A stretch of DNA of 64,000 nucleotides from NCBI GenBank assembly GCA_963792405.1, contig CAWBVU010000005.1, forward strand, positions 355,668 through 419,667, given 5' to 3'. Positions 777-26,609 of this stretch are shown piece by piece; position 1 is the first letter of the stretch, and every line of letters starts with the position of its first letter. The notes beneath the pieces were generated by a model that worked only from the letters and a program-made list of their open reading frames with translations, had not been told where the DNA came from and ran no database searches. Position numbers and translations under genes: made by a program. Source of the stretch: an uncultured Acidimicrobiia bacterium. Lineage in GTDB: Bacteria; Actinomycetota; Acidimicrobiia; Spongiisociales; UBA5794.

Positions 777-1553
777 ATGACGCCGCCGAAGGCGCCCGTC
801 GTCGGCACACCCGTGTCGCTCACCTCCTACGACGAGGTGATCGCCGCATTGGCCGAGCCCCCTGGAGACCGTGCGGCGACGGTGGCCGTGTGCAACGTCC
901 ACTCGGTGATGTCTGCCCGCAATGACGAACGATTGGCGAAGGCGATCGCAGGTGCAGATATCGCCACACCCGACGGAGTCCCGATCGTGTGGGCACTGCA
1001 GTGGACGACGGATCGGAGCGATCAGGAGCGGGTGTACGGGCCCGAGCTGATGCGGCGTGCGCTCCTCTCGTCCGACGGAGGTCTCCGCCACTACCTGTAT
1101 GGATCCACACCTGAGACCCTGGATCTGCTCCAACGCAGGATCAGCGAGCTCGCCCCCGGCGCCGAGGTGGTCGGCGCGGACTCCCCTCCGTTTCGACCAC
1201 TGACCGACGACGAGGAGGAGGCCGCGCTCGAACGCATCCGCACGAGCGGTGCCAACGTCGTGTGGATCGGGCTCGGCATGCCGAAGCAGGAGCTCTGGAT
1301 GGACAGCGTGGCTCCCCGCCTTCCCGGCGTCACCCTCGTCGGCGTGGGTGCCGCGTTCGACTTCATCGCAGGCACGAAGGCCCAGGCACCACCATGGATG
1401 CAGAAGGCAGGGCTCGAGTGGTTGTTCAGGCTGGTCCACGAGCCCCGACGCCTGTGGCGACGCTACATCTGGAACAACCCCGCCTACCTCGTCCTGCTCG
1501 CCCGTCAGGTCGTCACATCACGCCTGACCTCCCGCCGACGGGGAGCCGACTGA
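777..1553 (+). CDS. WecB/TagA/CpsF-family glycosyltransferase (ManNAc-type transferase)
   Basis: 258 aa with family-typical motifs (YGPELMRR, WIGLGMPKQELWM, FRLVHEPRRLWRRY). First gene of a glycan locus. Confidence 0.8.
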   Translation: MTPPKAPVVGTPVSLTSYDEVIAALAEPPGDRAATVAVCNVHSVMSARNDERLAKAIAGADIATPDGVPIVWALQWTTDRSDQERVYGPELMRRALLSSDGGLRHYLYGSTPETLDLLQRRISELAPGAEVVGADSPPFRPLTDDEEEAALERIRTSGANVVWIGLGMPKQELWMDSVAPRLPGVTLVGVGAAFDFIAGTKAQAPPWMQKAGLEWLFRLVHEPRRLWRRYIWNNPAYLVLLARQVVTSRLTSRRRGAD

Positions 1554-1645
1554 CCCATGGCACCGGTGCGATCCGTGGACCGATGTCGCAGAGGCCCCGC
1601 CGAAGGCCAGGTGGGGCCATGCCGAGGCGTCGAGGGACGAACATC

Positions 1646-2842
1646 ATGAAGGTGGTCGTCTGCCACAACTACTTCCGCGAGCGTGGCGGCGAGGATCAGG
1701 TGTTCGAGGACGAGGTCGCGTTGCTGCGATCCGGCGGCCACGAGGTCATCGAGTACGTCAAGCGGAACAAGGAGATGACCGGGCCCCAGGTCGTGGGCTC
1801 CGCCATCCGAGCCCCGTGGAACACGACGTCGTACCGCGACGTGCGACGCATCGTGCAGGAGTCGGGCGCCGACATCGTCCACATCCACAACACGCTGCCG
1901 CAGCTGTCGCCCGCCGTGTTCAAGGCGGCACGCGACGGGGGAGCCGCCGTCGTCCACACCCTCCACAACTACCGATGGGCGTGCCCGAAGGGCATCCTGT
2001 TCAGGGAGGGGAAGGCATGCGAGGAGTGCCTCGGGCGGACGGTTCCGTGGCCGGCGGTCCGACACGGGTGCTACCGCGACAGCCGGACCGGGTCCGCCGT
2101 GGTGGCGACGACGCTCGCCGTGCACAACGCCCTCGGCACACCGCAGAGCGCAGACGCGTACGTCGCGGCGGGCACGTTCATCAAGGAGAAGATGACCGAG
2201 GCGGGCCTTCCCGGGGATCGCATCTACGTCAAACCCAACTTCCTCGATCCGGATCCGGGGGCCGGAGGGGGGACGGGTGACTACGCGATGTACCTCGGCC
2301 GCCTCTCACCGGAGAAGCGGATCGACACGCTCCTCGCCGCATGGGAACTGCTCCCCGAGCCGATCCCCCTGAAGATCTCCGGTGACGGGCCGCTGCGCCC
2401 CATGGTGGAGGCCGCGGCGGCAACGCACCCGCACATCGAGTACCTCGGCTTCGCCCCGAAGGACGACGTGAACCGCCTCCTCGGGGAGGCGCGGGTGCTC
2501 GTGTTCACGTCCGGCACCTACGAGGCACAGCCCCTGACGATCCTCGAGACGTTCGCCAAGGGCACGCCCGTCATCGCGGGACGCCTCGGGGCGATGCAGG
2601 GGATGATCGAACCGGGGCGGACAGGATGGCTGTTCGAGCCCGGCGATGCCGCAGACCTCGCCCGCGTCGTCACCGAGGCCTTCGCCTCACCTTCCCTCCT
2701 CGCCTCGTTGCGCCCCCAGGTGCGCGACCATTTCGAATCGACCTACACGATCGCTAAGAACCTCGATCGACTGGTCGATATATACGGGCACGCGATCGAT
2801 CATCGCAACCAACGGACAGCGGACATGGGGAGTGGCAGATGA
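1646..2842 (+). CDS. GT4-family glycosyltransferase with N-terminal Cys-rich motif
   Basis: Start MKVVVCHNYFRERGGEDQ with a GAGGGA RBS about 10 nt upstream. Contains HNYR, CPKG...CEEC and a C-terminal GT4 fold (EAQPLTILETFAKGTPVIAG). The upstream part of ORF 1262..2842 is non-coding. Confidence 0.8.
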   Translation: MKVVVCHNYFRERGGEDQVFEDEVALLRSGGHEVIEYVKRNKEMTGPQVVGSAIRAPWNTTSYRDVRRIVQESGADIVHIHNTLPQLSPAVFKAARDGGAAVVHTLHNYRWACPKGILFREGKACEECLGRTVPWPAVRHGCYRDSRTGSAVVATTLAVHNALGTPQSADAYVAAGTFIKEKMTEAGLPGDRIYVKPNFLDPDPGAGGGTGDYAMYLGRLSPEKRIDTLLAAWELLPEPIPLKISGDGPLRPMVEAAAATHPHIEYLGFAPKDDVNRLLGEARVLVFTSGTYEAQPLTILETFAKGTPVIAGRLGAMQGMIEPGRTGWLFEPGDAADLARVVTEAFASPSLLASLRPQVRDHFESTYTIAKNLDRLVDIYGHAIDHRNQRTADMGSGR

Positions 2843-3579
2843 GAGCAGTGATCCTGGCGGGCGGCAAGGGCACACGCCTTGCGCCCTACACCATCACCTT
2901 CCCGAAACCGCTCGTCCCCGTCGGTGACATGCCGATCCTCGAGATCGTGATCCGTCAGCTGAGCGCTGCGGGCTTCGACCACGTGACCCTGGCCGTGGGC
3001 CATCTCGCCGAGCTCATCGAGGCGTACTTCGGGGATGGCAGCCGTTGGGGCATCACCATCGACTACTCCCGGGAGGACCAACCCCTCGGCACGGTCGCAC
3101 CGATCAAGCTGATCCCCGACCTTCCCGAGCACTTCCTGGTGATGAACGGCGACGTGCTCACCAGCCTGCCGTATCGCTCACTGTTCGACGGCCACGTCAC
3201 CTCGGGTGCGCAGTTCACGATCGCCGTCCACCGCCTCAACGTGCAGATCGACTACGGCCTGATCGAGTTCGACGGTCGCCTGAGGGTGACCGGGTATCGG
3301 GAGAAGCCCACGTTCCCCGGCGACGTGTCGATGGGCGTGTATGTGTTCTCGCGGGAGGCACTCGATCTCATCCCCGAGGGGGAGTACATGGACATCCCGA
3401 CGCTCGTGACGAGGCTGGTCGCGGAGGGCCGCGAGGTGAGGGCATCACTGACGGACTGCCGGTGGCTCGACATCGGTCGCCAGGAGGACTACGCACGGGC
3501 CATCGCCTCGTTCGACACCCTGCGGGCCGAGTTCCTTCCCATCACCGAGACGTCCACCGCGGGAGAGGAGACCACATGA
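2839..3579 (+). CDS. Sugar-phosphate nucleotidyltransferase (NTP_transferase family)
   Basis: MRAVILAGGKGTRLAPYT...PKPLVPVG motif. ATGA overlap with the upstream gene suggests translational coupling. Confidence 0.8.
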   Translation: MRAVILAGGKGTRLAPYTITFPKPLVPVGDMPILEIVIRQLSAAGFDHVTLAVGHLAELIEAYFGDGSRWGITIDYSREDQPLGTVAPIKLIPDLPEHFLVMNGDVLTSLPYRSLFDGHVTSGAQFTIAVHRLNVQIDYGLIEFDGRLRVTGYREKPTFPGDVSMGVYVFSREALDLIPEGEYMDIPTLVTRLVAEGREVRASLTDCRWLDIGRQEDYARAIASFDTLRAEFLPITETSTAGEETT

Positions 3580-4538
3580 ACGTCCTCGTCATCGGAGGTG
3601 CGGGCTACGTCGGCTCTCCCCTCGTGTACCAGCTCTGGCGCGACGGCCACTCGGTGACCGTCCTCGACGTGCTGATGTTCGGAGGCGAGTCGCTGCTGCC
3701 CCTCGCCGGGGAAGACCGCTTCCGCCTGGTCGCGGGCGACCTGAGGTCCGAGGCCGTGCTCGACGAGGTGGTACCCGGACAGGATGCGATCGTGCTCCTC
3801 GGCGCCATCGTCGGCGAGCCTGCGAGCAACCGCGACCCCGAGCTGACGGTCTCGACGAACCTGCACGGCTCGGTGGCGGTCCTCGATGCCGCCAAGCGGC
3901 ACGGCGTGCCGAGGTTCGTGTTCGCCAGCACGTGCAGCAACTACGGCATCTCCGACGCCGACGGTCCCATCGCGGAGGACGCTCCGCTCATGCCCCTGTC
4001 GCCCTACTCCGAGACGAAGGTCGCCGCCGAGGAGATCATCATCGGCGCTGCGGGCGACGGCTTCCACCCCACGGTGCTGAGGCTCTCGACGGCGTTCGGG
4101 CTCTCTCCCCGCATGAGGTTCGACCTGCTCGTCTCCGACTTCACCGCCGCCGCCATCAACGACGGGAAGATCGTCATCTTCGGGGAGCAGTTCTGGCGGC
4201 CCTTCGTGCACGTCCAGGACATCGCCAAGGCCATCCGCCTCGTCCTCGAGGCGGACCCGGGGCTCGTGTCCGGTGAGGTCTTCAACGTGGGTTCGAATCC
4301 GAACAACGTGCAGAAGCAGACACTCGGCGAGGCGGTCCAGCGTTTGGTGCCGGGCACGGAGCTCGAGTTCGTCGTCCGCACCGAGGACCCGCGCTCGTAC
4401 CGCGTCGACTTCACCAAGATCGGCGAGGTCCTCGGGTTCACGGCCGACTGGTCCGTCGACGATGGGATCCGCGAACTCGCCGTCGCCCTCGAGCAGGGGG
4501 TCTTCAAGGACGTCGGCGATCCCCGCTACCACAACTGA
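3576..4538 (+). CDS. NAD-dependent epimerase/dehydratase (SDR family)
   Basis: MNVLVIGGAGYVGS Rossmann motif and YSETK catalytic motif. ATGA overlap with the nucleotidyltransferase. The true start is inside ORF 3045..4538. Confidence 0.8.
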   Translation: MNVLVIGGAGYVGSPLVYQLWRDGHSVTVLDVLMFGGESLLPLAGEDRFRLVAGDLRSEAVLDEVVPGQDAIVLLGAIVGEPASNRDPELTVSTNLHGSVAVLDAAKRHGVPRFVFASTCSNYGISDADGPIAEDAPLMPLSPYSETKVAAEEIIIGAAGDGFHPTVLRLSTAFGLSPRMRFDLLVSDFTAAAINDGKIVIFGEQFWRPFVHVQDIAKAIRLVLEADPGLVSGEVFNVGSNPNNVQKQTLGEAVQRLVPGTELEFVVRTEDPRSYRVDFTKIGEVLGFTADWSVDDGIRELAVALEQGVFKDVGDPRYHN

Positions 4539-4540
4539 CC

Positions 4541-5767
4541 GTGGAGGCCCACACGATGCCGACGTCATCTGACATCGTCGTGATCGGAGGTGGCCTCGTC
4601 GGCCTCGCCACCGCCCACGCGCTCGCATCGAGCGCACCGGACGCCTCGATCACGGTGGTGGAGGCGGAGGGGGGCGTCGCACGACATCAGTCCGGCCGCA
4701 ACAGCGGGGTCCTGCACTCGGGTGTCTACTACGCGCCGGGTTCACACAAGGCGACGATGTGCACCGACGGGCGGCGTCGCATGGAGGCGTTCTGCGACGA
4801 GCACGGCGTCCGGTGGGAGCGCACGGGGAAACTGATCATCGCAACCCGCCCCGAGGAGGTCGAGCAGCTCGATGGCCTGCTCGCCCGTGGTCGCGCCAAC
4901 GGCCTCGACGGGCTCGAGATCGTCGACGAGGCAGGGATCCGGGCCATCGAGCCCCACGCGACAGGCCTTGCGGCCCTCGTGGTGCCGCAGGCGGGGATCG
5001 TGGACTACAACGGCGTCGCCCACCGGCTCGTCGACCTCCTTCGCTCGTCGGGTGACACGGTGCTGACCGGCTTCCGCGTCGCCGCCATCGATCGCACCGT
5101 CGAGGGCTTCGTCCTCACCTCCGATCGCGGCGATCGCGTCACGGCCGGCTACCTCGTCAACTGTGCGGGCCTCCATTCCGATCGCATCGCCCGGATGGCG
5201 GGAGCGGATCCTTCCGTGCAGATCGTGCCCTTCCGGGGCGAGTACTACGTCCTCGACCCGTCACGAGCCCACCTCGTGCGCAGCCTCGTCTACCCCGTGC
5301 CGGATCCCCGGTTCCCGTTCCTCGGCGTGCACTTCACACGGCGGATCGACGGGAGCGTGGAGGTGGGGCCCAACGCCGTGCTCGCGCTGGGTCGGCATCA
5401 CTACCGGGGCGAGGGAGGCGCCAACCTCCGCGATACCCGCGAGATGATCGGTTCGAGGGCTCTGTGGGCGCTCGGGCGGAAGTACTGGCGCACCGGCTCG
5501 AAGGAGGCGATCCGCTCCAAGAGCAAACGCCTCTATGCGAAGGCGGCGAAGGCGCTCATCCCAGAGGTCGAGGCGAGTGACCTGCGCAGGGGCGGCTCGG
5601 GGATCCGTGCCCAGGCCCTCGGTGACCACGGTGCACTCCTCGACGACTTCGCCCTCGAGCAGACCGAGCGCGCCCTCCACGTGCTCAACGCCCCGTCACC
5701 GGCGGCCACCGCGAGCCTGACGATCGGCAGGGAGATCGCCGACCGGGTGCTCGCCGCGACCCGCTGA
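4541..5767 (+). CDS. FAD-dependent oxidoreductase (L-2-hydroxyglutarate oxidase LhgO-like)
   Basis: DIVVIGGGLVGLATA dinucleotide-binding motif; 408 aa. The real start may be the Met at 4556. Confidence 0.7.
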   Translation: MEAHTMPTSSDIVVIGGGLVGLATAHALASSAPDASITVVEAEGGVARHQSGRNSGVLHSGVYYAPGSHKATMCTDGRRRMEAFCDEHGVRWERTGKLIIATRPEEVEQLDGLLARGRANGLDGLEIVDEAGIRAIEPHATGLAALVVPQAGIVDYNGVAHRLVDLLRSSGDTVLTGFRVAAIDRTVEGFVLTSDRGDRVTAGYLVNCAGLHSDRIARMAGADPSVQIVPFRGEYYVLDPSRAHLVRSLVYPVPDPRFPFLGVHFTRRIDGSVEVGPNAVLALGRHHYRGEGGANLRDTREMIGSRALWALGRKYWRTGSKEAIRSKSKRLYAKAAKALIPEVEASDLRRGGSGIRAQALGDHGALLDDFALEQTERALHVLNAPSPAATASLTIGREIADRVLAATR

Positions 5768-5782
5768 GCGGCCGCACGGGCC

Positions 5783-6952
5783 TCAGGGCCGCTGGGGCCC
5801 CCCGGTCACGACCTCCTCATAGACGCCCTCGAGCCTGGCGAGGGCTGAAGGCACGGCATAGGTCGTCTCGTAGCGTCGGCGCGCCTCGGCTCCTGCCGCG
5901 TCGACGTGCCCATCGTCGGACAGGCCCCTGATGGCCTCCACCCACTCGTCGAGCGATCCGGGCTTTGTGAGCTGCGCGGCCCCTGCATCACCCGTCACCT
6001 CCCGTCGCGGACCCAGGTCGTTGGCCACCACCGGAACCCCGGCGGCGAGTGCCTCGACGAGGCTGAGGCCCAGCGTCTCGTAGTAGAGGGAGGGGAACAC
6101 GAGCGCCCTCGCCGATCGGAGCGTCTCCATCACCGCCGCATGGTCGAGCCAGCCGATGAACCGCACGCCTCGGATCCTGCGCTCGTCGAACGTCGAGAGC
6201 ATCGGACCGGTCCCGATCACGGTGAGCTCGAGATCACTGCCCGCCTGCTGCCAGGCGTCGAGCAGCAGGTCGAGGCCCTTCCCCTCCGCGATCCTCCCGA
6301 TGTACACGACCTCGTCGGATTCCGACGGTGCGTTGAGGCGAGGACCAGGATCAGGGATGAGCGGAGGGACCACACGTATGCGATCCCCGGGGATGCCGGA
6401 GCGCTCGAGGACGGCACCGGCGAAGTCGCTCGTGACGATGAAGCGATCGACGTTGCGCGTCCAGGTGCCGAGCGACCGGTTGAGGGCGATCGTGGTGGCG
6501 GCGACGAGCGATTCGGCCGCCGAGCCCCTGTAACAGCGATGCGCGACGGCACTCCACGGATGGGATCCGACGCAGTCGGTGCAGGGTGCGCCATCACGCC
6601 ACAGCACACCGTTCGCACAGACGAGGCGGTAGTTGTGGACCGTCATCACGACGGGCACGTCGGCCCTCCCGAGCGCGGAGAAGACGGATGGCGTCCACCG
6701 GTACCACGTGTTGTGGACATGGGCGATGTCGGGCCGATGGTCCGACAGGAGCCGGCCGATGGTGCGAGCACCCCCGGGACCCCACGGGGCGAGGGGAAGG
6801 AGCCTCATCTGATCGAGGCGGGAGGACGGATTGGAGGTGCGAGCCCCGACGACCGTGTGGCCATCAGCCCTGAGTGCATCGGCTTCGATCTCGACGAGGC
6901 GGTCCTCACCCCCGTGCTGGAGGTAGAGGTTGTGGACCTGCAGGACACGCAT
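5783..6952 (-). CDS. GT4-family glycosyltransferase, paralog of 1646..2842
   Basis: MRVLQVHNLYLQHGGED, HNYRLVCANG...CTDC and GT4 C-terminal motifs. Same unusual Cys-rich N-terminus as the gene at 1646. Confidence 0.8.
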   Translation of the reverse strand: MRVLQVHNLYLQHGGEDRLVEIEADALRADGHTVVGARTSNPSSRLDQMRLLPLAPWGPGGARTIGRLLSDHRPDIAHVHNTWYRWTPSVFSALGRADVPVVMTVHNYRLVCANGVLWRDGAPCTDCVGSHPWSAVAHRCYRGSAAESLVAATTIALNRSLGTWTRNVDRFIVTSDFAGAVLERSGIPGDRIRVVPPLIPDPGPRLNAPSESDEVVYIGRIAEGKGLDLLLDAWQQAGSDLELTVIGTGPMLSTFDERRIRGVRFIGWLDHAAVMETLRSARALVFPSLYYETLGLSLVEALAAGVPVVANDLGPRREVTGDAGAAQLTKPGSLDEWVEAIRGLSDDGHVDAAGAEARRRYETTYAVPSALARLEGVYEEVVTGGPQRP

Positions 6953-7012: not shown

Positions 7013-10000
7013 CTACCCAAGCCCCATCTGGCCGGAGATCGGCAGCCAGTTGGAGAGGCCCCCGACCCATTGCGCATCGGCCACTCCCGCCGTATTGGTG
7101 TATCGGAAGTACATCGTCGTGGTTGAGGGGCGGAACAGCGCAGGCGAGAAGATCGAGTCGCCCGTCCAGTCACCCGCGACGAGCCGATCGTCGGGGTCGC
7201 CGTAGATGAACTGGTTGTCCGCGTTGCCCTGCGTGTGGGAATTGCGGAAGTACACCAGCCCGGTCGACTCACGATGCAACCCGACCGTCTCGGTCCCGTT
7301 CCCATCGAAGTCACCCACGAACGGTTTGTCCCCGGGATTCCCGAACACGTACGAGAAGTCCGCCGCCCCCAGTCCGCCATCGTTGGCACCGAGCTTGTTG
7401 ATGATGTAGAACGTCTGGTTCGACGGACGGTAGATCGACACCGTGTCACAGCCGTCACCGTCGAAGTCACCCGCGATCGGGACATCACCGGGATTCCCGA
7501 AGAAGAACCTGATGTCACCCGGTCCCTGCGTGTTCGTGTCCCTCAGGTACACGTACCCGTCGGACTGGCGGTACATGCCGGGCGTCTCGATCCCATCACA
7601 GTTCCAGTCACCGTAGATGGGGTAGTCGCCTGGGTTCCCGAAGTAGAACTGGGCGGCGAGGGCGCCGGCGCTGTTGTACAGATGCCAGAGGCCCTGCGTC
7701 GGGTCGACGAGGCCGACCGTGTCGCCGCCTCCGCCAACGGGCCCCATGCCCTGGATGGACACGGCCGCGGTCCCGAGGCCGGTACCCGCCTCGTCGGCCA
7801 CGTTCGCGGACACCAGATACAGGCCCTCCTGGCCATATGCATGGGTCCGTTCGAAGGTCCGCGTTCCGACAGGCGACACGGCGAAGGAGGTCTGCGTGCC
7901 ATCACCCCAGGAGAGCACGACGTTGTGGATGTCGGCGACCCCGGGGTCGGTGAAGGTGACCTTCGCGGTGACGGACTCGTTCGTGGTGAACTCGAACGAA
8001 GGCACACCGCCTGTCTTCGAGGTTGCGACGGAGACTGTCGGCACGACGTTGTCGTTGTCGAGGATCGACCCCGTTGCCGTGGCATCGACGATGGCGGCGA
8101 GCGTGTTCGGCGACAGCTCGAGCGTGAGGGTCTCGGTGATCTCGTCGACGGCGTCGTCGACGATCGGGACCGACGACCTGCTGCGGAGCCCCTCCCGGCG
8201 AGGAAGGTCAGCACGCCCGGTGGTGGGTGTGAAATCGGCGCCTGCCACGGCCGTTCCTCCCACGGCGGTGTAGGTCACCGTCGCCGTCTGGCCGGACGCA
8301 GGCGACAGCACGACGGTGAAGGCGACACCCGCGCTTCCCTCGGCCGCGGGCTGGGCGTCGAGGACCGACAGACCGGCAGGCCCGTCGTCGTCGACGATGT
8401 TCATGGTGTGGCTGGGGTTCGCTCCGATGGCTCCACCGGCGGACAGGGAAGCGGGTTGGAGCGTCAGGGTGATCGTCTCGTTCGGCTCATCCGTCGTATC
8501 GGCGAGGATGGTCACCGGCACGTTCACGATTGCCCCGCTCGCGGAACCTGTCGGGAAGCTCACGAGGAACGGCGACGTGAACTGGAAGTCGATGCCCAGT
8601 GTGGCGCTCGTGGCGGTCAGCGCAGCCTGCACGGTTGCGGGCGACGCAAGCGTCCGTCCCGCTCCGATCGTGAGCACCACAGGGACGTTGACGACGGTCG
8701 ATCCCACCTGCCCTTCATCAGGAGAACTCGTGGGTGACTGGAAGGTGACACTGAAGTCGTCGTCAGTGATGTTGGCCGTCACCGACGCCACGACCGCACC
8801 GTCATACCCGCCACCCGAAGCCGCATGCGTGATCGTCCCCGCGTGAGGTGTGGCCTCGATGGCGGTGTCATTCACTGCCGTGACCGTCACCGTCTGAGCG
8901 CTACTCCAGTTCGCCGTCGTAAACGACAACGACGGCACCGACGTCGTCACCTGCGCATTCGGACTGATGGAAACCGTCACCGTCGACGACGGCTGAGAGT
9001 TCAGCCTCACCGTATACGAACCGGTCGCGCCCCCCTCGGCCACCGCCACCGACGAAACCGACACCGTCACACCGATGCTGTCGTTGTCCGTGATGTTCGC
9101 CGTCACCGACGCCACACCCACACCGTCATACCCGCCACCCGAAGCCGCATGCGTGATCGTCCCCGTATGCGCACCCTCAGCGACCGCATCGTCCACCGCC
9201 GTGACCGTCACCGTCTGAGCGCTACTCCAGTTCGCCGTCGTAAACGACAACGACGGCACCGACGTCGTCACCTGCGCATTCGGACTGATGGAAACCGTCA
9301 CCGTCGACGACGGCTGAGAGTTCAGCCTCACCGTATACGAACCGGTCGCGCCCCCCTCGGCCACCGCCACCGACGAAACCGACACCGTCACACCGATGCT
9401 GTCGTTGTCCGTGATGTTCGCCGTCACCGACGCCACACCCACACCGTCATACCCGCCACCCGAAGCCGCATGCGTGATCGTCCCCGTATGCGCACCCTCA
9501 GCGACCGCATCGTCCACCGCCGTGACCGTCACCGTCTGAGCGCTACTCCAGTTCGCCGTCGTAAACGACAACGACGGCACCGACGTCGTCACCTGCGCAT
9601 TCGGACTGATGGAAACCGTCACCGTCGACGACGGCTGAGAGTTCAGCCTCACCGTATACGAACCGGTCGCGCCCCCCTCGGCCACCGCCACCGACGAAAC
9701 CGACACCGTCACACCGATGCTGTCGTTGTCCGTGATGTTCGCCGTCACCGACGCCACACCCACACCGTCATACCCGCCACCCGAAGCCGCATGCGTGATC
9801 GTCCCCGTATGCGCACCCTCAGCGACCGCATCGTCCACCGCCGTCACCGTCACCGTCTGGGGGACATCCCAGTCCCCCGTCGTGAAGGTCAGCGACGGCT
9901 TGTCCACCGTCACCTGTGCATCCGGCGAAACCGAAATCGTCACGGTGTCGGTGGGGAGCTCGAGAAGAACGACGTCATACGAATCCGTCCCGCCCTCCGT

Positions 10001-10156
10001 CATGGCGAGGGGCGAGCCTGTTACCGAGACACCGGGCACAGCGCGCGCGGGGTCGGGTGGGGCGATGGCGATCAGGGAGGCGACCAGGCCGAAGATGAGG
10101 GCGAGGCGCAGGCTGGCGGACACGCCAATGCGGTGGAACGGCGGTGTCTTGGTCAT
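7013..10156 (-). CDS. Large secreted cell-surface repeat protein (signal peptide, Calx-beta/Ig-like tandem repeats, FG-GAP-like repeats)
   Basis: 1047 aa. N-terminal signal MTKTPPFHRIGVSASLRLALIFGLVASLIAIAPPDPARA. Three identical 107-aa repeats (VAEGAHTGTITHAASGGGYDGV...TVTAVDDA) plus diverged flanking copies. The C-terminal half carries five FGNPGD.P..GDWDGDG..T.G.YR blades. Confidence 0.8.
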   Translation of the reverse strand: MTKTPPFHRIGVSASLRLALIFGLVASLIAIAPPDPARAVPGVSVTGSPLAMTEGGTDSYDVVLLELPTDTVTISVSPDAQVTVDKPSLTFTTGDWDVPQTVTVTAVDDAVAEGAHTGTITHAASGGGYDGVGVASVTANITDNDSIGVTVSVSSVAVAEGGATGSYTVRLNSQPSSTVTVSISPNAQVTTSVPSLSFTTANWSSAQTVTVTAVDDAVAEGAHTGTITHAASGGGYDGVGVASVTANITDNDSIGVTVSVSSVAVAEGGATGSYTVRLNSQPSSTVTVSISPNAQVTTSVPSLSFTTANWSSAQTVTVTAVDDAVAEGAHTGTITHAASGGGYDGVGVASVTANITDNDSIGVTVSVSSVAVAEGGATGSYTVRLNSQPSSTVTVSISPNAQVTTSVPSLSFTTANWSSAQTVTVTAVNDTAIEATPHAGTITHAASGGGYDGAVVASVTANITDDDFSVTFQSPTSSPDEGQVGSTVVNVPVVLTIGAGRTLASPATVQAALTATSATLGIDFQFTSPFLVSFPTGSASGAIVNVPVTILADTTDEPNETITLTLQPASLSAGGAIGANPSHTMNIVDDDGPAGLSVLDAQPAAEGSAGVAFTVVLSPASGQTATVTYTAVGGTAVAGADFTPTTGRADLPRREGLRSRSSVPIVDDAVDEITETLTLELSPNTLAAIVDATATGSILDNDNVVPTVSVATSKTGGVPSFEFTTNESVTAKVTFTDPGVADIHNVVLSWGDGTQTSFAVSPVGTRTFERTHAYGQEGLYLVSANVADEAGTGLGTAAVSIQGMGPVGGGGDTVGLVDPTQGLWHLYNSAGALAAQFYFGNPGDYPIYGDWNCDGIETPGMYRQSDGYVYLRDTNTQGPGDIRFFFGNPGDVPIAGDFDGDGCDTVSIYRPSNQTFYIINKLGANDGGLGAADFSYVFGNPGDKPFVGDFDGNGTETVGLHRESTGLVYFRNSHTQGNADNQFIYGDPDDRLVAGDWTGDSIFSPALFRPSTTTMYFRYTNTAGVADAQWVGGLSNWLPISGQMGLG
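8880..9850. repeat. Perfect in-frame tandem repeat, 321 bp x ~3, inside the surface-protein gene
   Basis: Identical DNA blocks (e.g. ctgagcgctactccagttcgccgtcgtaaacgacaacgacgg recurs at ~8894, ~9214 and ~9536). Likely copy-number hot-spot. Confidence 0.85.
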
Positions 10157-10252
10157 TCGTAAACCCCCCGGGCAGATTCGGCACCCTCAGGTGGCAATCT
10201 AGTCGGCGCCGCCACTAGCGGCATTGGGGAGGTGACGTTTCGCGGTGTGAAC

Positions 10253-11632
10253 TCAGGCCTCGTCGACCGACGCCGACCTGGAGTAGCGCCCGATGCCCTC
10301 GTAGGCGAGGCCGGCGTCCTCGACGGCGTCGTGGTCGAGGGCGTTGCGCCCGTCGATCACGACGTGGCCCCGCATGAGCCGCGCCATGCGGTCGTAGTCG
10401 AGGTCGAGGAACTCGGGCCACTCGGTGAGGAGCACGACGGCGTCCGCTCCCTTCACACACTCGTAGGGATCCTCGAAGATGTCGACGTGGTCCATGTCGG
10501 GCAGCTCCCTGACCATCGGGTCCGAGGCCCGGATGAGCACGCCCTTCTCCTCGAGCGACCGGATGATGGAGAGGGCCGGTGCATCTCGCAGGTCGTCGGT
10601 TCCCGGCTTGAACGCAAGGCCGAGGAGGGCGATGCGGCTGCCCCGCAGCGGGCGCAGGTAGTTCTGGAGCTTGCGCACGACGACGTTGCGCTGGTTCTTG
10701 TTGACCCGCTTGACCGCCTCGAGGATCAGCGGCTCGATCCCCTGCTCACGGGCCATCGACGCCAGGGCATCGATGTCCTTGCCGAAGCAGGACCCGCCCC
10801 AGCCGACGCCGGCGTTGAGGAACTTCGGGCCGATGCGCGAGTCGAGGCCGATCGCGTAGGCGACATCCTCGACGTCGGCATCGAGCCATTCGCAGATGTT
10901 GGCGATCTCATTGATGAAGCTGATCTTCATCGCGAGGAAGGCGTTCGCGGCGTACTTGATCGTCTCCGCCGTTGCCCTGCCGGTCTTGACGAGGGTCGGC
11001 TTGCGCGTCGGGTCGCCACCCTCGAAGGACTGCGACAGGATCGGCTCGTACACGTCGGCGACCTTCTCGACCGCCTTCGGGTCGTCGCCGCCCACCACGA
11101 CCCGATCCGGCTGGAGGAAGTCCTCGACGGCAGCGCCCTCGCGGAGGAACTCCGGGTTGCTCACCACCCTCACGACGCCCGGATCGACCCCATCGGGAAG
11201 CGCGGAGGTGATGGTGGCCTCGAGCCAGTTGCCGCTTCCCACGGGGACGGTGCTCTTCGTCACGATGATGTGGGGCGTCCTCAGGGCGGCCCCGATCGAT
11301 CGCGATGCGGCGGCAACGGAGCTCATGTCGGGATGGCCGTTCGTTCCCGGTGGCGTGTCGACGCACAGGAACACGATCTCGGACTGGTTCATGGCCAGTT
11401 GGTAGTCACTCGTGAACGACAGGCGACCCGACGACAACGCCGACGTGAGACGCTCCTCGAGGCCCGCCTCGTAGAAGGGGACCCTGCCCTCCCTCAGTGA
11501 GGCGAGCTTGCCCTCGTCGATCTCCACGCTGATCACTCGCCGGCCGAGGTCCGCCAGACACACCGCCACCACGGTGCCGACGTATCCGCTACCGACCACC
11601 GCGATTCCGGGGGTGTCCCTTGGTTCCGTCAT
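10253..11632 (-). CDS. ugd: UDP-glucose 6-dehydrogenase (UDP-glucose/GDP-mannose dehydrogenase family)
   Basis: Start MTEPRDTPGIAVVGSGYVG at 11632 with GGAAGG RBS. Motifs CVDTP and GGSCFGKD. The upstream 75 codons of ORF 10253..11854 are not coding. Confidence 0.8.
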   Translation of the reverse strand: MTEPRDTPGIAVVGSGYVGTVVAVCLADLGRRVISVEIDEGKLASLREGRVPFYEAGLEERLTSALSSGRLSFTSDYQLAMNQSEIVFLCVDTPPGTNGHPDMSSVAAASRSIGAALRTPHIIVTKSTVPVGSGNWLEATITSALPDGVDPGVVRVVSNPEFLREGAAVEDFLQPDRVVVGGDDPKAVEKVADVYEPILSQSFEGGDPTRKPTLVKTGRATAETIKYAANAFLAMKISFINEIANICEWLDADVEDVAYAIGLDSRIGPKFLNAGVGWGGSCFGKDIDALASMAREQGIEPLILEAVKRVNKNQRNVVVRKLQNYLRPLRGSRIALLGLAFKPGTDDLRDAPALSIIRSLEEKGVLIRASDPMVRELPDMDHVDIFEDPYECVKGADAVVLLTEWPEFLDLDYDRMARLMRGHVVIDGRNALDHDAVEDAGLAYEGIGRYSRSASVDEA

Positions 11633-11919
11633 TGCTGCCTTCCAAGCCCTACGCCGCTCGTCTGCGCCGTGGGATCGAGTGTAGATGATTCGACCACTCT
11701 CGGCAATACCTTGACCACATTGCGTGGGTTCATGTTCGAGGCTCGCTCCTGGCTGAGCGGAATGGTATCCCCGCTCCCGGCACGCACTCGCCATCGATGT
11801 CCGATTTCGCGTCCACGGCAGCTGGGAGTCCTCGATGCCGGGTCTCCGCCGCACGCCGCGCCGCGTGGTCGATCGCGGAACCCCCCTCGGTCACACCCTG
11901 CCGGTCGCCCGGCAGGAGC

Positions 11920-12618
11920 TCATGCCCCGCGCTTGCCCCCGAGCATCGCCGACGGCGTGCGGAGGATGATGCGGAGATCGTTCATGAACGTGATGTTGTC
12001 GACGTACTCGATGTCGATGTCGGTCGCCTCGTGCATCGGCACGTGTCCACGTGCGGAGATCTGCCAGAGGCCCGTGAGACCGGGCTTGACCTCGTGCCGA
12101 CGGTGCTGCCACTCCTCGTAGCGAGCAACGACCTGCGGCAACTCGGGCCGCGGGCCCACCAGGCTCATGTCGCCCAATGCCACGTTCCAGAACTGTGGGA
12201 TCTCGTCGAGGCTCCACTTGCGGAGGAACCGGCCGATGTCGGTGTGCCGGGGATCATCCGCGGACTTGTGGTTGAAGCGTCGGTCCGGGTGATCGATCGC
12301 CTGCATGGCGGCGCGGCGGTCCTGGCGCATCGTGCGGAACTTGTAGACCTCGAACTCCTCGCCGAATCGACCGAGGCGCACCTGGCGGAAGATCGCGGGC
12401 CGTCCGATGGACAACCAGATCAGGGGAACGACGACGGCGACGATCGGAAGGGTGACGACCGTGAGCACGACACCCCCGAGGCGGTCGAGTCCCGGCTTGA
12501 CGAACCGCTCGTAGAACCCGGCCCCATGGACCAGCGGAACCACCCGCGGTCCTGTGTACTGCGATTCGCCGTCGACGCCACGAAGTGCATCGACGTTTCT
12601 TTCGACGTCCGCCACCAT
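11920..12618 (-). CDS. Priming sugar transferase (bacterial sugar transferase family, WcaJ/CpsE C-terminal domain type)
   Basis: One transmembrane segment followed by YKFRTM...[21 protein letters not shown] motifs. Confidence 0.8.
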
Positions 12619-13008
12619 GCCCCCTAAGCACCCCCTCCAAGCCCTGGAGAGGAATCCAACCTCACAAGCCAGTCTATGCGGTAGTCATCAGACTGCAATG
12701 CGTATTTCGATGAATTCGTGAGAACTAGTCCCTGAACCCGCGATATCCGCGCCAAAGGCGCGAAATCCGCACGAAGTACCGTCTGACTCCCACTGCGTCG
12801 TCGGCCTGCCCCCCGTCGCCTCCCCATGACGTCGCCGAAGGAGCACCCTTCGCACACGTCAACCCGTCGACCTTCCAGCTTGTTCCGCCCTCGTCACCGG
12901 GCACGACGACGTCGGCATGGCGCCTGATGCCGGGACGCACCGACACCGATGCGCGAAAACGCGGCGACGTACCCGCGTATCAAAGCCGAGGTGTGATTAC
13001 CCTCCCGT

Positions 13009-13924
13009 CATGGACGTGATCAGGCGGAGCCGGTTCCCGCACCTGCGCAATCCCATCGGCATCGTCGCGTTCGGTGGATGGAACGACGCATGCGATGTCG
13101 CCTCCACGGCCGCCGAGTTCATCCTCGACGCACACCCGGACTCCGAGGCCTTCGCCGAGATCGAGCCGGATCCGTTCTACGACTTCCAGCAGCAGCGCCC
13201 GACCATCGACATCCGCGACGGTGTCGCACGCTCGGTGCAGTGGCCGGGGATCACCTTCACCGCCGTGTCGCGGCCCCGCGACGACCGCGATGTCGTGGTC
13301 GTGACGGGGCAGGAGCCGAACTTCCTCTGGAAGACCTTCGCACGCAGCGTCGTCGAGGTCCTCGTCGAGGTCGGCGTCGAGGAGGTCGTCCTCGCAGGCG
13401 CCTACGTCGGGGCGGTGGGGCACAGGGACCCCGTCGTGCTGTCGGGTGTCGGCTCCGATGAGGTCAGCGTCATCCGCAGCGGGCTCGAGACAGCCTCGTA
13501 CCACGGCCCGACCGGCATCGTCGGGGTCGTCCAGGGTGCATGCAAGGAGGCAGGGATCCGGTCCATCTCGATGTGGGCGCCGACACCCCCCTACCTCGCG
13601 GGCAACCCCTTCCCCAAGGCGGTCCTGGCGATCGTCGAGCGCATCGCCGACATCACGAACCTCCACATCGACACCGCTGAGCTCATCGCCGTCGACGCCG
13701 AGTACTCGCAGAAGGTCGATGAGGCGCTCGAGAACTCCGGTGCAGACCTGGAGGAGTACCTCGAGGAGATGGAGTCCTACGACGAACCGCTCCTCGGGCC
13801 CCTCCTCGGGACAAGCCGTTCCGAGCCGATCGACGATCCCCATATCCAGCGCCTCGACCCGGAGCGCACCGATGCGCTCGTCGACGAGATCGTCAGGTTC
13901 CTGGAGGGCGACGGCTCGTCGTGA
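13009..13924 (+). CDS. PAC2-family protein
   Basis: Start MDVIRRSRFPHLRNPIGIVAFGGWNDA, about 305 aa. Family assignment is from recall. The upstream part of ORF 12917..13924 is unlikely to be coding. Confidence 0.55.
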
Positions 13925-20014: not shown

Positions 20015-21313
20015 TCAGCTCTCGAGGTCGGGGTCCCATTCGTAGACGGGGCCGTCCTCCTCGTACTCGGGGACGCGGTCCTCGTCGCGGGTCATGATGC
20101 CCGACAGGCCCTCACCGAACTCGGTGCGTCCGGAGAGGAGGTCGCTGCCGTGGGTGACGACGAGCCGCCCGTACTTGCGGCGCAGCTCGTCCACCGAGGC
20201 GTCGAGGGCGCGGTACTCGATCTCCTTCGGGGTGCCACCCGTCGAGGTGGTGTCGTCGACTCCCATGGCGAGCTGCATCGGCTCCCCCACGGCGAGGCCC
20301 GAGGTGGAGATCCCGACGAGGGACGTCTCGTGCCTCGGGTACTCGTCGACGACCTTCTGCAGCAGCTTCGTGGCGATGTCCATGATCGCCCCGGTCGCGG
20401 CCGTCGGTGTGGGCATGGTCGCCGACCGGGTCACCGCCGACAGGTCGCCGAACCGCACGCGCACGGTCACGGTGCGCGCCGTGCGGTTCTTCGCCCGAAG
20501 CCGCTCGGCGACACGGTCGGTGAGACGTTGGAGGACGGGCACCAGCTCGTCCATCGTGCGGATCTTGGAGCGGATCGCGCTCTGGGCACCGACGGACTTC
20601 GCCCGCCGCTCCCGCGTCACGGGTCTGGGATCCTGGTTGTTCGCGAGGGCGTGGAGATGCCCTGCCGCCCCGGGGCCGAGCATGGCCGTGAGCGCATCGA
20701 GCGGCGTGTCGGCGATGTCCCCGATCGTCTCGAGCCCGTAGCTGCGGAGCTTGCGCTCCGTCACCGGCCCCACCCCCCACAGCAGCGACACGTTCAGGGG
20801 ATGGAGGAACGCCAGCTCCTCGCCCGGCTCGACGACGATCAGCCCGTCCGGCTTCGCCACCTGCGAGGCGATCTTCGACAGGAACTTGCGGGTCGAGGCC
20901 CCCACCGACACGGCGAGTCCCGTCTCGGTGCGCACCCTCTCCCGGATCGCCTCTGCGATCTCCCGCGGCGACCCGAAGAGGTGGACCGAGCCCGTGACGT
21001 CGAGGAACGCCTCGTCGATGGAGATGCCCTCGATGGCGGGCGTGAACGACTCGAAGATGGAGAACACCGTCCGCGAGTAGGCCGTGTAGGCGCCGAACGT
21101 GCCGTCCACGAGGATGAGCTGCGGGCACAGGGCCCTGGCGTCCACCATCCGCATGCCGCCGCGCACACCGAAGGCCCTCGCCTCGTAGGTGCACGACAGC
21201 ACCACGCCCGTGCCGACGGCAACGGGCTTGCCGGCAAGCGACGGATCCTCGAGCACCGCCACCGCGGCGTAGAACGCGTCGAGATCCGCATGCAGGATCC
21301 CCGGTATGTCCAT
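20015..21313 (-). CDS. dinB: DNA polymerase IV (Y-family)
   Basis: MDIPGILHADLDAFYAAVAVLEDPSLAGKPVAV, SIDEAFLDVTG and little-finger domain; 432 aa. Confidence 0.85.
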   Translation of the reverse strand: MDIPGILHADLDAFYAAVAVLEDPSLAGKPVAVGTGVVLSCTYEARAFGVRGGMRMVDARALCPQLILVDGTFGAYTAYSRTVFSIFESFTPAIEGISIDEAFLDVTGSVHLFGSPREIAEAIRERVRTETGLAVSVGASTRKFLSKIASQVAKPDGLIVVEPGEELAFLHPLNVSLLWGVGPVTERKLRSYGLETIGDIADTPLDALTAMLGPGAAGHLHALANNQDPRPVTRERRAKSVGAQSAIRSKIRTMDELVPVLQRLTDRVAERLRAKNRTARTVTVRVRFGDLSAVTRSATMPTPTAATGAIMDIATKLLQKVVDEYPRHETSLVGISTSGLAVGEPMQLAMGVDDTTSTGGTPKEIEYRALDASVDELRRKYGRLVVTHGSDLLSGRTEFGEGLSGIMTRDEDRVPEYEEDGPVYEWDPDLES

Positions 21314-24481: not shown

Positions 24482-26609
24482 ATGCGACCACCACGCATCC
24501 GACGACCACGGCTCTCCGACCTGCTCACCCTCGCCGTCTTCTCGATGATCCTCACCGCCGCGGTGCTCTACTCGCCCGGGTGGACCGTCGGGGGGAGAGC
24601 GGAGGCCACCGCCCCCGTCGACCTCGCCAACGTCGCTGCATCGCTCCAACCCTTCATCCCCAAGCCGGTCCTCGCGGCGTCCGTGCCCGCGGGTGCCCAC
24701 GGTGTGGGCCTGGTCGACACCGAGCAGGGCGTCTGGCACCTCCGCACCCGCGACGGCGACCCCGCCTCGTTCTTCTACGGCAATCCAGGCGACTACCCGT
24801 TCACGGGCGACTGGGACTGCAACGGCACCGACACGCCCGGCCTCTACCGCCAGTCCGACGGGTACGTGTACCTGCGCAACTCGAACACGCAGGGCCCGGG
24901 TGAGATCAAGTTCTACTTCGGCAATCCGGGCGACTTCCCGCTGTCTGGCGACTTCAACGGCGACGGCTGCGACACCCTCTCCCTGTACCGGCCGTCCGAG
25001 CAGCGGATCTATGTGATCAACACGCTCGGGTCGAACGACACCGGCCTCGGTGAGGCCGAGTACTCGTACATCTTCGGGAACCCCGGTGACAAGCCGTTCA
25101 CCGGCGACTTCAACGGCAACGGCATCACCACGGTCGGCCTGCACCGTGAGTCGACGGGCTTCATGTACTTCCGCAACACGAACACCCAGGGCGTGGCCGA
25201 CTACCAGTTCTACTTCGGCGACCCCGGCGACCGCCTCATCGCAGGCGATTGGACCGGTGCGGGCGAGGACTTCCCCGCCGTGTACCGGCCGTCGAACCGC
25301 ACCGTGTACATGCGGTTCTCCAACACGCAGGGCAATGCCGACGAGTTCTACCAGTGGGGCGAATCGCCCTACATCCCCGTGGCGGGGTTCTTCGGGCCGC
25401 TCGACAGCGGCGTGTCGGTGAGCGTCTCGGGCGCCCCGACCGAGCTCAAGTACGCCATCGAGTCCTTCTACCAGGACCAGCAGGCGGCCCCGCACATCCC
25501 CGAGGGGCTGCGCACCAACCTGCTCGGCCTCCGCGACTATCCGAAGGTGAAGATCGCCTCCGGTTCGGCCACCACCTCCACGGCGTACGGCAAGGGCGTG
25601 GCGGTGGCCACCGTGAACGGCGACACGTTGCTGGCGGTCACGGACAACGGCTGGGAGTGGCGCATCGTCGGGAGCGAATCCGTTCGGGCTGGGCCGCACC
25701 CTGTACTACGGCGGGAACGCCCGCCACGTGGCGATGATCGGCACCGACTGGCAGCAGTCCGGCTCCACATGGCCGACCGACGTGACCCGCACCAACGCCG
25801 ATTCGCTGCACCTCTACACGGTGAACCCGGTGGCGGGGGCGGGCGCCGTCTCGGGCTTCCCGCGCTCGACGTACATCACCACCCCGTTCGGCTACACGCG
25901 TGTCGCCAAGACCACGGTCGACGGCGGCCCGTCGAACACCGTCACCTCGCTCCGGATGGAGACGGGCCTCCCGGTGGAGGGCTACTTCCTCATCGGCATG
26001 GGCAGCTTCAACCCTGGCGCCCCTCCGGGGTTCTCGGACCTGGTCGACGCCTACGGCGGCTTCCCCTTCCTCGTGCCGTACGAGCCCCTCGGTGGCGTGC
26101 CGGCGGTGGGCGACACCTTCCTCAATGGCACCGAGGCGATCGCCTGGGCCCGTGAGCGCCAGAACTCCCCCCACGGCGGGTCGGACCGCACCCTCAACCA
26201 GGGTCAGATGATCAAGGCGGCGCTGGCGACGATCCAGCCGCTCGGGATGTCCCAGATCCCCAACCTGCTGTCCATCATGGACGGGTTCGTGTACACGGAC
26301 CTGTCGATCGACCAGGTCCTCACCTTTGCGGCCACCGTGTACACGGTCAACACCGGCGCGATGCCGACCATGACACCCCAGGACCTCATCAACTCGGGAC
26401 ATGTGGCGCCGAACAAGATCGTCCCGACGCACGGCCCGTACAACCAGAACCCCGGCACGCTGCCCAACGTGCTGATCAAGGGCTGCCTGTACACACCGGA
26501 CGGTGTCACCTTCGGCTACTCGCTCACCGCGCAGAACAAGGCGCTGTTCACCGACCTCGCCGACGGCGTCCTCGACACCGCACCCTGGATCTGTGACGAC
26601 GGCACCTAG
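24482..26609 (+). CDS. LCP (LytR-CpsA-Psr) family glycopolymer ligase with N-terminal TM anchor and FG-GAP-like repeats; frameshift ~25675
   Basis: TM anchor, then five FGNPGD...GDW/FDCNGTDT blades paralogous to the surface protein. The LCP domain reads in the +1 frame (25728..26609): FLIGMGSF...FLNGTEAIAWARERQ. Confidence 0.65.

Follow-up and report, generated by a model that had tools for sequence, protein, structure and literature searches.

A predicted secreted protein with a perfect 321-bp repeat array and an uncatalogued C-terminal propeller, encoded in a polysaccharide locus of an uncultured Acidimicrobiia bacterium

Results

Layout of the gene and its product

We analyzed a stretch of 64,000 nucleotides (nt) from an uncultured Acidimicrobiia bacterium (assembly GCA_963792405.1, contig CAWBVU010000005.1, forward-strand positions 355,668 to 419,667; hereafter the window, whose own numbering is used throughout). 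On its minus strand, at 7013-10156, lies a gene whose 1047-amino acid (aa) product is predicted to be secreted and combines perfect 321-bp in-frame tandem repeats, two Calx-beta domains, a PKD domain and a C-terminal five-bladed beta-propeller. A first-pass annotation of this DNA overlooked the propeller and the polysaccharide gene cluster around the gene.

The open reading frame (ORF) starts with ATG, and its GC content at third codon positions (GC3) is 0.83, as in real genes here (window GC, 67.7%). An identical protein, P0001, is present in the public database. On the plus strand, two large ORFs (7235-8737 and 8825-10162) overlap the gene. Both fail a filter on codon-position composition (GC3 and its second-position equivalent, GC2) and were dismissed as shadow ORFs over a gene of high GC; the translation of 8825-10162 is of low complexity and rich in Arg and His. 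The parts of the gene, with the evidence for each, are as follows.

7013-10156, minus: whole gene for a predicted secreted multidomain protein, stop codon at 7013-7015 (ORF list; GC3; identity to P0001)
10040-10156, minus: predicted signal peptide, aa 1-39, MTKTPPFHRIGVSASLRLALIFGLVASLIAIAPPDPARA followed by VPG (hydrophobic 12-mer; A-x-A motif; cleavage site predicted)
9728-10048, minus: module R0, aa 37-143 (tblastn, 73% identity to the unit)
9407-9727, minus: module R1, aa 144-250, immunoglobulin (Ig)-like and Calx-beta-related (identical to R2; AlphaFold)
9086-9406, minus: module R2, aa 251-357 (identical to R1)
8765-9085, minus: module R3, aa 358-464 (66 nt differences from R2)
8877-9844, minus: perfectly periodic DNA, 321-bp period (offset-321 self-comparison; Tandem Repeats Finder; repeat-family search)
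8387-8764, minus: Calx-beta domain 1, aa 465-590 (Pfam PF03160; jackhmmer domain at aa 482-591)
8048-8386, minus: Calx-beta domain 2, aa 591-703 (best Pfam stretch at aa 606-701; frame analysis)
7724-8047, minus: PKD domain, aa 704-811 (PKD_4 match)
7016-7723, minus: five-bladed beta-propeller, aa 812-1047, putative envelope-glycan-binding anchor

At the N-terminus, a charged start precedes a hydrophobic 12-mer at aa 20-31 (mean Kyte-Doolittle value 2.86), and A-R-A, which reads as an A-x-A site, stands immediately before V40. Cleavage is therefore predicted after residue 39; the ending 'IAPPxxA' appears to be conserved in the orthologs P0081 and P0090. All domain types in the protein are extracytoplasmic. 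Together with the signal-peptide-like N-terminus, this agrees with the first-pass description of a secreted surface protein.

Both Pfam-recognised Calx-beta domains, the PKD domain and the C-terminal domain sit downstream of the perfect repeats. Calx-beta (PF03160) was found in two stretches, at approximately aa 482-591 and 606-701, with 53-54 bits against a cutoff of 27, and the second of these domains also gave weak sequence matches in the PDB to the CBD domains of NCX/CALX. The PKD match (aa 723-798) is marginal, at 27.5 bits for PKD_4 against a cutoff of 27 when scanned alone. A scan of the protein against NCBIfam returned nothing beyond the Pfam results, and PDB sequence searches with the whole protein, a module profile and a propeller profile gave no significant match.

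Within Calx-beta domain 2, the segment at approximately 8160-8240 on the minus strand (aa ~645-662) is locally garbled. The frame reads 'GRADLPRREGLRSRS'; orthologs have '..LTFxPGxTxxVVxV..' at this position, and 'GVLTFL' and 'PGGAPQQVV' are found here in the other two frames. It seems that the frame is shifted and then restored by three insertions of one base each, at short runs of G or C. An orthologous gene at a locus that we call L004 loses its frame at the same place.

The first-pass annotation had also called the protein S-layer-like, and an S-layer or sheath subunit that self-assembles into a lattice could share several of its properties. The protein is large, acidic, low in Cys and rich in Thr, Val, Gly, Ala and Ser, and a relative, P0093, carries the repeated module together with SLH domains. 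However, scans with Pfam and NCBIfam gave zero matches to SLH (PF00395) in the 1047-aa protein, and no other known S-layer domain is present. Nothing points to a lattice-forming domain or to very high expression, orthologs are rare in databases, and a linear string of small Ig-like domains is typical of stalks and adhesins. We consider a lattice subunit very improbable. An LPXTG-like motif is likewise absent from the protein, whose C-terminus is the last strand of the propeller (WLPISGQMGLG).

The perfectly periodic array

Tandem Repeats Finder reported one array at 8756-9859, with a period of 321, 3.4 copies and a score of 2027. Comparison of the DNA with itself at an offset of 321 gave an unbroken perfect match of 647 nt, so that 8877-9844 is perfectly periodic over 968 bp, or 3.02 units. 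At 107 aa per unit the period preserves the frame, and residues 100-428 of the protein are perfectly periodic. Such periodicity cannot be due to chance, and it confirms the perfect 321-bp in-frame tandem repeats that had been placed at about 8880-9850.

When the array is divided in the register of the protein domains, it consists of four modules, R0 to R3, which adjoin with almost no linker between them. R1 and R2 differ at 0 of 321 nt. Between R0 and R1 there are 97 nt differences, confined to nt 1-204 of the module, and the last third of R0 is identical to that of R1 and R2. Between R3 and R2 there are 66, confined to the final 112 nt (210-321), with the first two thirds identical. The diverged flanking copies of the first-pass annotation are present, but in a more exact sense they are the outer parts of the first and last modules. 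At both edges of the array DNA divergence leaps from 0% to ~48%, which indicates that the unit of duplication does not coincide with the domains. As judged from the sequence, such sharp edges speak for unequal recombination or gene conversion in the recent past, and not for slow divergence. The repeat is a textbook case of a recombination-prone in-frame domain array, and the locus should be flagged as one where assemblies and gene lengths are not to be trusted without spanning reads.

Family and fold of the module

More than 4,000 proteins of many phyla, all large and repetitive, contain the 107-aa module, which has no Pfam or NCBIfam model of its own. From the 120 best matches we extracted 987 instances (up to 14 per protein), with the consensus D..GVTVS...L.V.EGG...YTVvL..qPt..VTV...LTFT..NW...QTVTVTA.dD...eg....i.H.as.g.Y.g....V.v.itD. 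AlphaFold predicted a single module (model m08452c62d5e1, 64-sequence alignment) to be a nine-stranded Ig-like beta-sandwich, with a predicted local distance difference test (pLDDT) score of 97.2. In Foldseek comparisons with the PDB, this model matched PapD-like chaperones, an accessory domain of GH115, and CBD1 and CBD2 of Na/Ca exchangers at template modelling (TM) scores of ~0.63-0.71; CBD1 and CBD2 (0.64-0.69) rank with the best single-domain matches, beside many other Ig-like folds.

At the level of sequence profiles, a single module did not match Pfam Calx-beta even at E<=10, far from the gathering threshold, and its best Pfam scores, to fn3_6 (19 bits) and LapA (17 bits), were non-significant. 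A jackhmmer search seeded with Calx-beta domain 2 recruited the modules, but the database was small and enriched, which makes this result weak, and hhalign was used instead. Aligned with Calx-beta domains that do not overlap the modules, the module alignment gave P = 6e-5 and a probability of 65% over 83 columns, with the hallmark motifs EG, YTVvL, LTF and VTVTAvDD in register. It is plausible that the module is a distant relative of Calx-beta, outside the Pfam family. Of the earlier label 'Calx-beta/Ig-like', the Ig-like fold therefore holds; the Calx-beta part survives as a plausible distant relationship and not as Pfam membership. Three acidic residues of the module, E17, D73 and D107, are invariant, and we take their positions to correspond to calcium ligands of CBD1.

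Of 111 proteins that carry the module, 14 have neighboring copies with an identity of 95% or more. There are 11 such pairs in P0022 and 11 in P0004, and P0093 (1192 aa) has four identical neighboring modules with SLH domains at its end. These comparisons suggest that the module has expanded in parallel many times in unrelated lineages, and that recent local expansion is a recurrent habit.

Orthologs and length variation

The 1047-aa protein is a database singleton, and an exact-protein look-up in assemblies, made with the window protein and with P0001, found no second copy. Its orthologs P0081 (951 aa), P0121 (1061 aa) and P0090 (968 aa) have the same architecture, consisting of a signal peptide, modules, two Calx-beta domains, a PKD domain and the same C-terminal domain, and orthologs carry 3-4 modules. 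P0121 equals P0081 plus one tandem 110-aa module, with the remainder 100% identical, and the two DNA copies of the extra module differ at 1 of 330 nt. The two proteins come from different samples (the ENA assembly ERZ23877654 and the NCBI assemblies GCA_003704855.1 and GCA_003704755.1) with distinct flanking DNA; the DNA of their loci is 99.98% identical downstream and 97.4% identical upstream. This difference reflects either real strain variation or collapse by an assembler, both of which the first-pass annotation had foreseen for such repeats. As the pair differs by exactly one module, the copy-number variability proposed in the first-pass annotation is plausible.

A scan of a collection of GTDB-based representative genomes found two true orthologous loci, L004 and L005, both in metagenome-assembled genomes (MAGs); the rest were generic Calx-beta proteins. 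In each the orthologous gene (9203-11765 in L004, 8603-12011 in L005) is split into several ORFs by frameshifts. The L005 ortholog has an N-terminal stalk of canonical Calx-beta domains in place of the 107-aa module, which indicates that the stalk is the variable part of this family. In a homolog search with the middle region of the protein, word matches to Calx-beta crowded out other matches, and six fragments were returned.

Broken reading frames of this kind bear on whether the array itself is an artefact of assembly or polishing, such that the count of three stems from the handling of near-identical repeats and the real module number or identity differs. The window is part of one metagenome-type contig of 451 kb, of which the databases contain no second copy. 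Residual indel errors are likely, given the probable triple indel in Calx-beta domain 2 and a frameshift in a gene elsewhere in the window that joins a propeller to a LytR-CpsA-Psr (LCP) domain (described below); the MAG orthologs are likewise broken, and the 951/1061-aa pair may itself be a case of collapse. The array, however, lies exactly in frame inside an intact 1047-aa ORF, the orthologs independently have 3-4 modules, and the passage of a 451-kb contig through a 1-kb perfect repeat suggests that spanning reads were available. Near-identical neighboring modules, as described above, also recur in proteins from many projects. An artefact would alter the number of units and not the nature of the feature, and we give it a small chance.

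The C-terminal propeller

The last 236 residues of the protein (aa 812-1047) contain four repeats of the form FGNPGDxPxxGD(F/W)(D/N)xDG and a closing WLPISG strand. AlphaFold predicted 20 strands in a 5 x 4 pattern for this region (pLDDT 95.6; predicted TM score 0.90), that is, five four-stranded blades made from sequence repeats of ~47 aa, the organization of a tachylectin-2-like propeller. The closest folds are the lectins tachylectin-2 (1tl2) and UmbA4 (9oee), with a weaker match, at rank 42, to the propeller of Vibrio cholerae Bap1. No Pfam family, FG-GAP and VCBS included, matched the region even at E<=10. The propeller family is without a Pfam or NCBIfam model, and a precomputed VCBS mark was carried by 1 of 120 homologs.

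The family is large. A word-indexed search returned 2,538 matches at 66-84% identity, whose named sources are nearly all Acidimicrobiia or Actinomycetota, and an exhaustive search returned 25,934 representative clusters at E<=1e-3, of which 3,510 were at E<=1e-30. The propeller lies at the extreme C-terminus in ~95 of 128 homologs, and it retains 62-82% identity across more than 130 distinct protein architectures in which the rest of each protein differs. Among 79 representatives its partners include subtilases (8), Big_9 (8), cadherin-like domains (7), PD40 (7), trypsin (5), Calx-beta (5), LRR (3), LCP ligases (2), peptidoglycan amidase (2), PKD and others; NPCBM, cupredoxin, CAP and Excalibur domains also occur with it. 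An N-terminal hydrophobic segment was detected in 109 of 126 full-length representatives, as compared with 11 of 126 in a control region.

A constant terminal module joined to many unrelated secreted passengers is, by analogy, what one sees in SLH, LysM, GW and other wall-binding modules. The degree to which the propeller is conserved speaks for a single, conserved self ligand and against a range of foreign targets. From its fold, position, partners and conservation, we conclude that the propeller is probably an anchor that binds an envelope glycan.

Other propeller genes in the genome

A second propeller gene is present in the window.

24482-26609, plus: transmembrane anchor, propeller and LCP domain, frame-broken (tblastn, 64%; LCP PF03816; P0376 colinear)

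The ORF at 24482-26155 encodes a transmembrane anchor followed by a propeller at 64% identity (tblastn). Past residue ~395 its translation is junk, and the next frame contains a complete LCP domain (PF03816, 37.2 bits against a cutoff of 24.6). An intact protein of 639 aa, P0376, is colinear with both pieces, and the change of frame falls at approximately 25,671-25,693. The gene is either a pseudogene carrying a real mutation or the product of a 1-nt assembly indel. In either case the window contains at least one indel, which calls for caution about the repeat count.

LCP enzymes attach glycopolymers of the wall to peptidoglycan, and the fusion would accordingly place the propeller at the wall. 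A further protein, P0123 (386 aa), encoded on the same source contig outside the window, joins a Big_9/cadherin-like domain to a propeller of 79% identity. With P0123 as the third, this genome uses the propeller in at least three proteins.

The polysaccharide cluster

The repeat gene lies between genes for polysaccharide synthesis, as listed here.

5783-6952, minus: GT4 glycosyltransferase, 60 bp downstream of the repeat gene (Pfam; synteny)
10253-11854, minus: UDP-glucose/GDP-mannose dehydrogenase, 96 bp upstream of the repeat gene (Pfam; synteny)
11920-12618, minus: Bac_transf initiating sugar-phosphate transferase (Pfam PF02397, 198 bits)
777-5767, plus: divergent arm with WecG/TagA, GT4, NTP-transferase, epimerase and DAO oxidoreductase genes (Pfam; ortholog gene order)

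No terminator-like sites were found in the 96-bp and 60-bp gaps that flank the repeat gene. The order of dehydrogenase, large repeat protein, GT4 and DAO genes recurs in L004 and in three further loci, L001-L003, where it extends to WecG and Wzy_C; in L005 the dehydrogenase is kept upstream of the large gene. This conserved synteny links the stalk protein genetically to a pathway for a wall or surface polysaccharide that uses uronic acid.

Several other observations concern the neighborhood. The dehydrogenase ORF exceeds both its Pfam-covered part and its orthologs (450-455 aa) by ~75 codons; its start is probably the Met near 11632, which would leave ~290 bp of intergenic DNA before the Bac_transf gene. 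Beside the cluster are genes for a PAC2-family protein of the proteasome-assembly type (12917-13924, plus) and a Y-family DNA polymerase (20015-21313, minus), ordinary housekeeping neighbors that are consistent with an actinobacterial chromosome. An Rfam scan of the window detected no RNA family.

The setting of the gene bears on a further possibility, namely that the protein is released and acts as a matrix protein or adhesin whose propeller lectin binds either an exopolysaccharide produced by the flanking Wzy-type cluster or foreign glycans on particles or on other cells, cross-linking a biofilm matrix in the manner of Vibrio Bap1/RbmC. The gene lies inside a Wzy-dependent polysaccharide cluster with conserved synteny, the fold matches of the propeller are lectins and extend, at a weaker level, to Bap1 itself, and arrays of Calx-beta and PKD domains are common in adhesins. 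Against this, identity of 62-82% across hundreds of unrelated passenger architectures and species points to a single self ligand, whereas the UmbA lectins, which are aimed at foreign polymers, have strongly diversified (PMC13274773). Fusions of the propeller to membrane-anchored LCP ligases and to peptidoglycan amidase also place it at the wall. We regard a released matrix role as unlikely.

Discussion

Taken together, these data favor, with moderate confidence, a secreted and envelope-retained stalk of variable length that carries a propeller anchor and whose array was recently expanded or homogenised by unequal recombination. As its N-terminus suggests, the protein would be exported by the Sec pathway with cleavage of the signal peptide. 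The propeller would then hold it non-covalently on a conserved envelope glycan, most likely peptidoglycan or a wall-linked glycopolymer, and so do the work done elsewhere by SLH, LysM or GW modules. The Ig-like modules, together with the Calx-beta and PKD domains, would form an extended, rod-like stalk that calcium probably stiffens at the acidic junctions between modules (E17, D73 and D107; ...ITDND linker), as suggested by Calx-beta and cadherin-type domains.

Unequal homologous recombination between neighboring units would account for the recent expansion or homogenisation of the array. The 968-bp repeat provides a substrate, and RecA-dependent unequal exchange or replication slippage within it may add or remove modules. 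Since whole 321-bp units would be gained or lost, always in frame, the length of the stalk would shift by one folded domain at a time.

Several points weigh against this interpretation. The length gap between P0081 and P0121 could result from a short-read assembler collapsing a 330-bp repeat, and assembly or polishing could have influenced the copy number in the present array and even its perfect identity. For the propeller, glycan binding is suggested by fold similarity at 9-18% identity with no PDB sequence match, and five-bladed propellers include enzymes as well (GH43, glutaminyl cyclase). Most propeller proteins, as checked, are not beside polysaccharide genes, so that the synteny may concern the stalk and not the ligand of the propeller. 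Finally, the signal peptide leads straight into the modules, and the N-terminus lacks a separate ligand-binding head of the kind found in the archetypes of the protein class discussed below. No ligand-binding head domain was found in the protein, and the term 'adhesin' used in the first-pass annotation is not borne out.

A broader proposal, which we put forward as tentative and somewhat short of an even chance, is that the propeller is an undescribed, lineage-wide envelope-targeting module of Acidimicrobiia-type actinobacteria. As a counterpart of SLH and LysM, it would tether hundreds of different secreted proteins, among them stalks, proteases, amidases and LCP ligases, to a conserved wall glycan, and the repeat protein would be a stalk of variable length displayed by it and coupled to the wall-polysaccharide locus. 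If the propeller is the general means of surface retention in the Acidimicrobiia, the surface proteome of this group would become predictable, and a conserved wall ligand would be indicated. This candidate surface-retention module is the part most worth following up, in a lineage that is abundant and uncultured. A by-product of the analysis is the recognition of two widespread uncatalogued domains, the 107-aa module and the five-bladed propeller.

Comparison with known systems places both domains beside, and apart from, established families. The repeated module shares with Calx-beta (PF03160; CBD1 and CBD2 of NCX1/CALX) an Ig-like sandwich and the motifs EG, LTF and V.V...DD..E, but it has hallmarks of its own in NW...QTVTVTA, EG.H.G.ItH and GGGY.G. 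The propeller is at 9-18% identity to tachylectin-2 (1tl2) and to UmbA4 (9oee) of the Streptomyces umbrella toxins, with no match at the sequence level. The UmbA4 propeller has at least six blades, and the UmbA lectins have diversified to target competitors (PMC13274773); the propeller described here is five-bladed and strongly conserved. Its repeat motif FG..GD.P..GDFDGDG..T resembles the FG-GAP consensus and, as we read it, includes an element like a DxDxDG calcium loop, although unlike the FG-GAP/VCBS propellers of the integrin alpha type it has no Pfam match at E<=10 and five blades instead of seven. As with SLH, LysM, GW and choline-binding repeats, one conserved terminal module is found on proteases, amidases, Ig-like stalks and LCP enzymes; the propeller fold is unrelated to theirs, and wall binding is in this case a prediction.

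The closest parallel to the protein as a whole is provided by the Periscope Proteins (SasG/Aap, Rib, Sgo_0707, Esp, CdrA), surface stalks made of long DNA-identical domain repeats whose number is changed by intragenic recombination (Whelan et al. 2021, PMC8201768). Like them, the product of 7013-10156 is a predicted secreted surface protein with tandem folded domains that exceed 50 aa and have identical or almost identical DNA, here units of 107 aa with 100% DNA identity over 968 bp. It also resembles them in its short linkers and may do so in a repeat number that differs between close relatives (as in the ortholog pair), with intragenic recombination as the presumed mechanism. The archetypes differ in being anchored through LPXTG and sortase, where the present protein has a C-terminal propeller, and in belonging to host-associated Firmicutes or Proteobacteria, where this one is from an environmental actinobacterium; only about three of its units are identical, and its repeated domain is an uncatalogued Calx-beta-like module. 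The protein fits the Periscope class, without LPXTG or SLH anchors, and it would carry the Periscope-type pattern beyond cultured pathogens, to an environmental actinobacterium that is uncultured.

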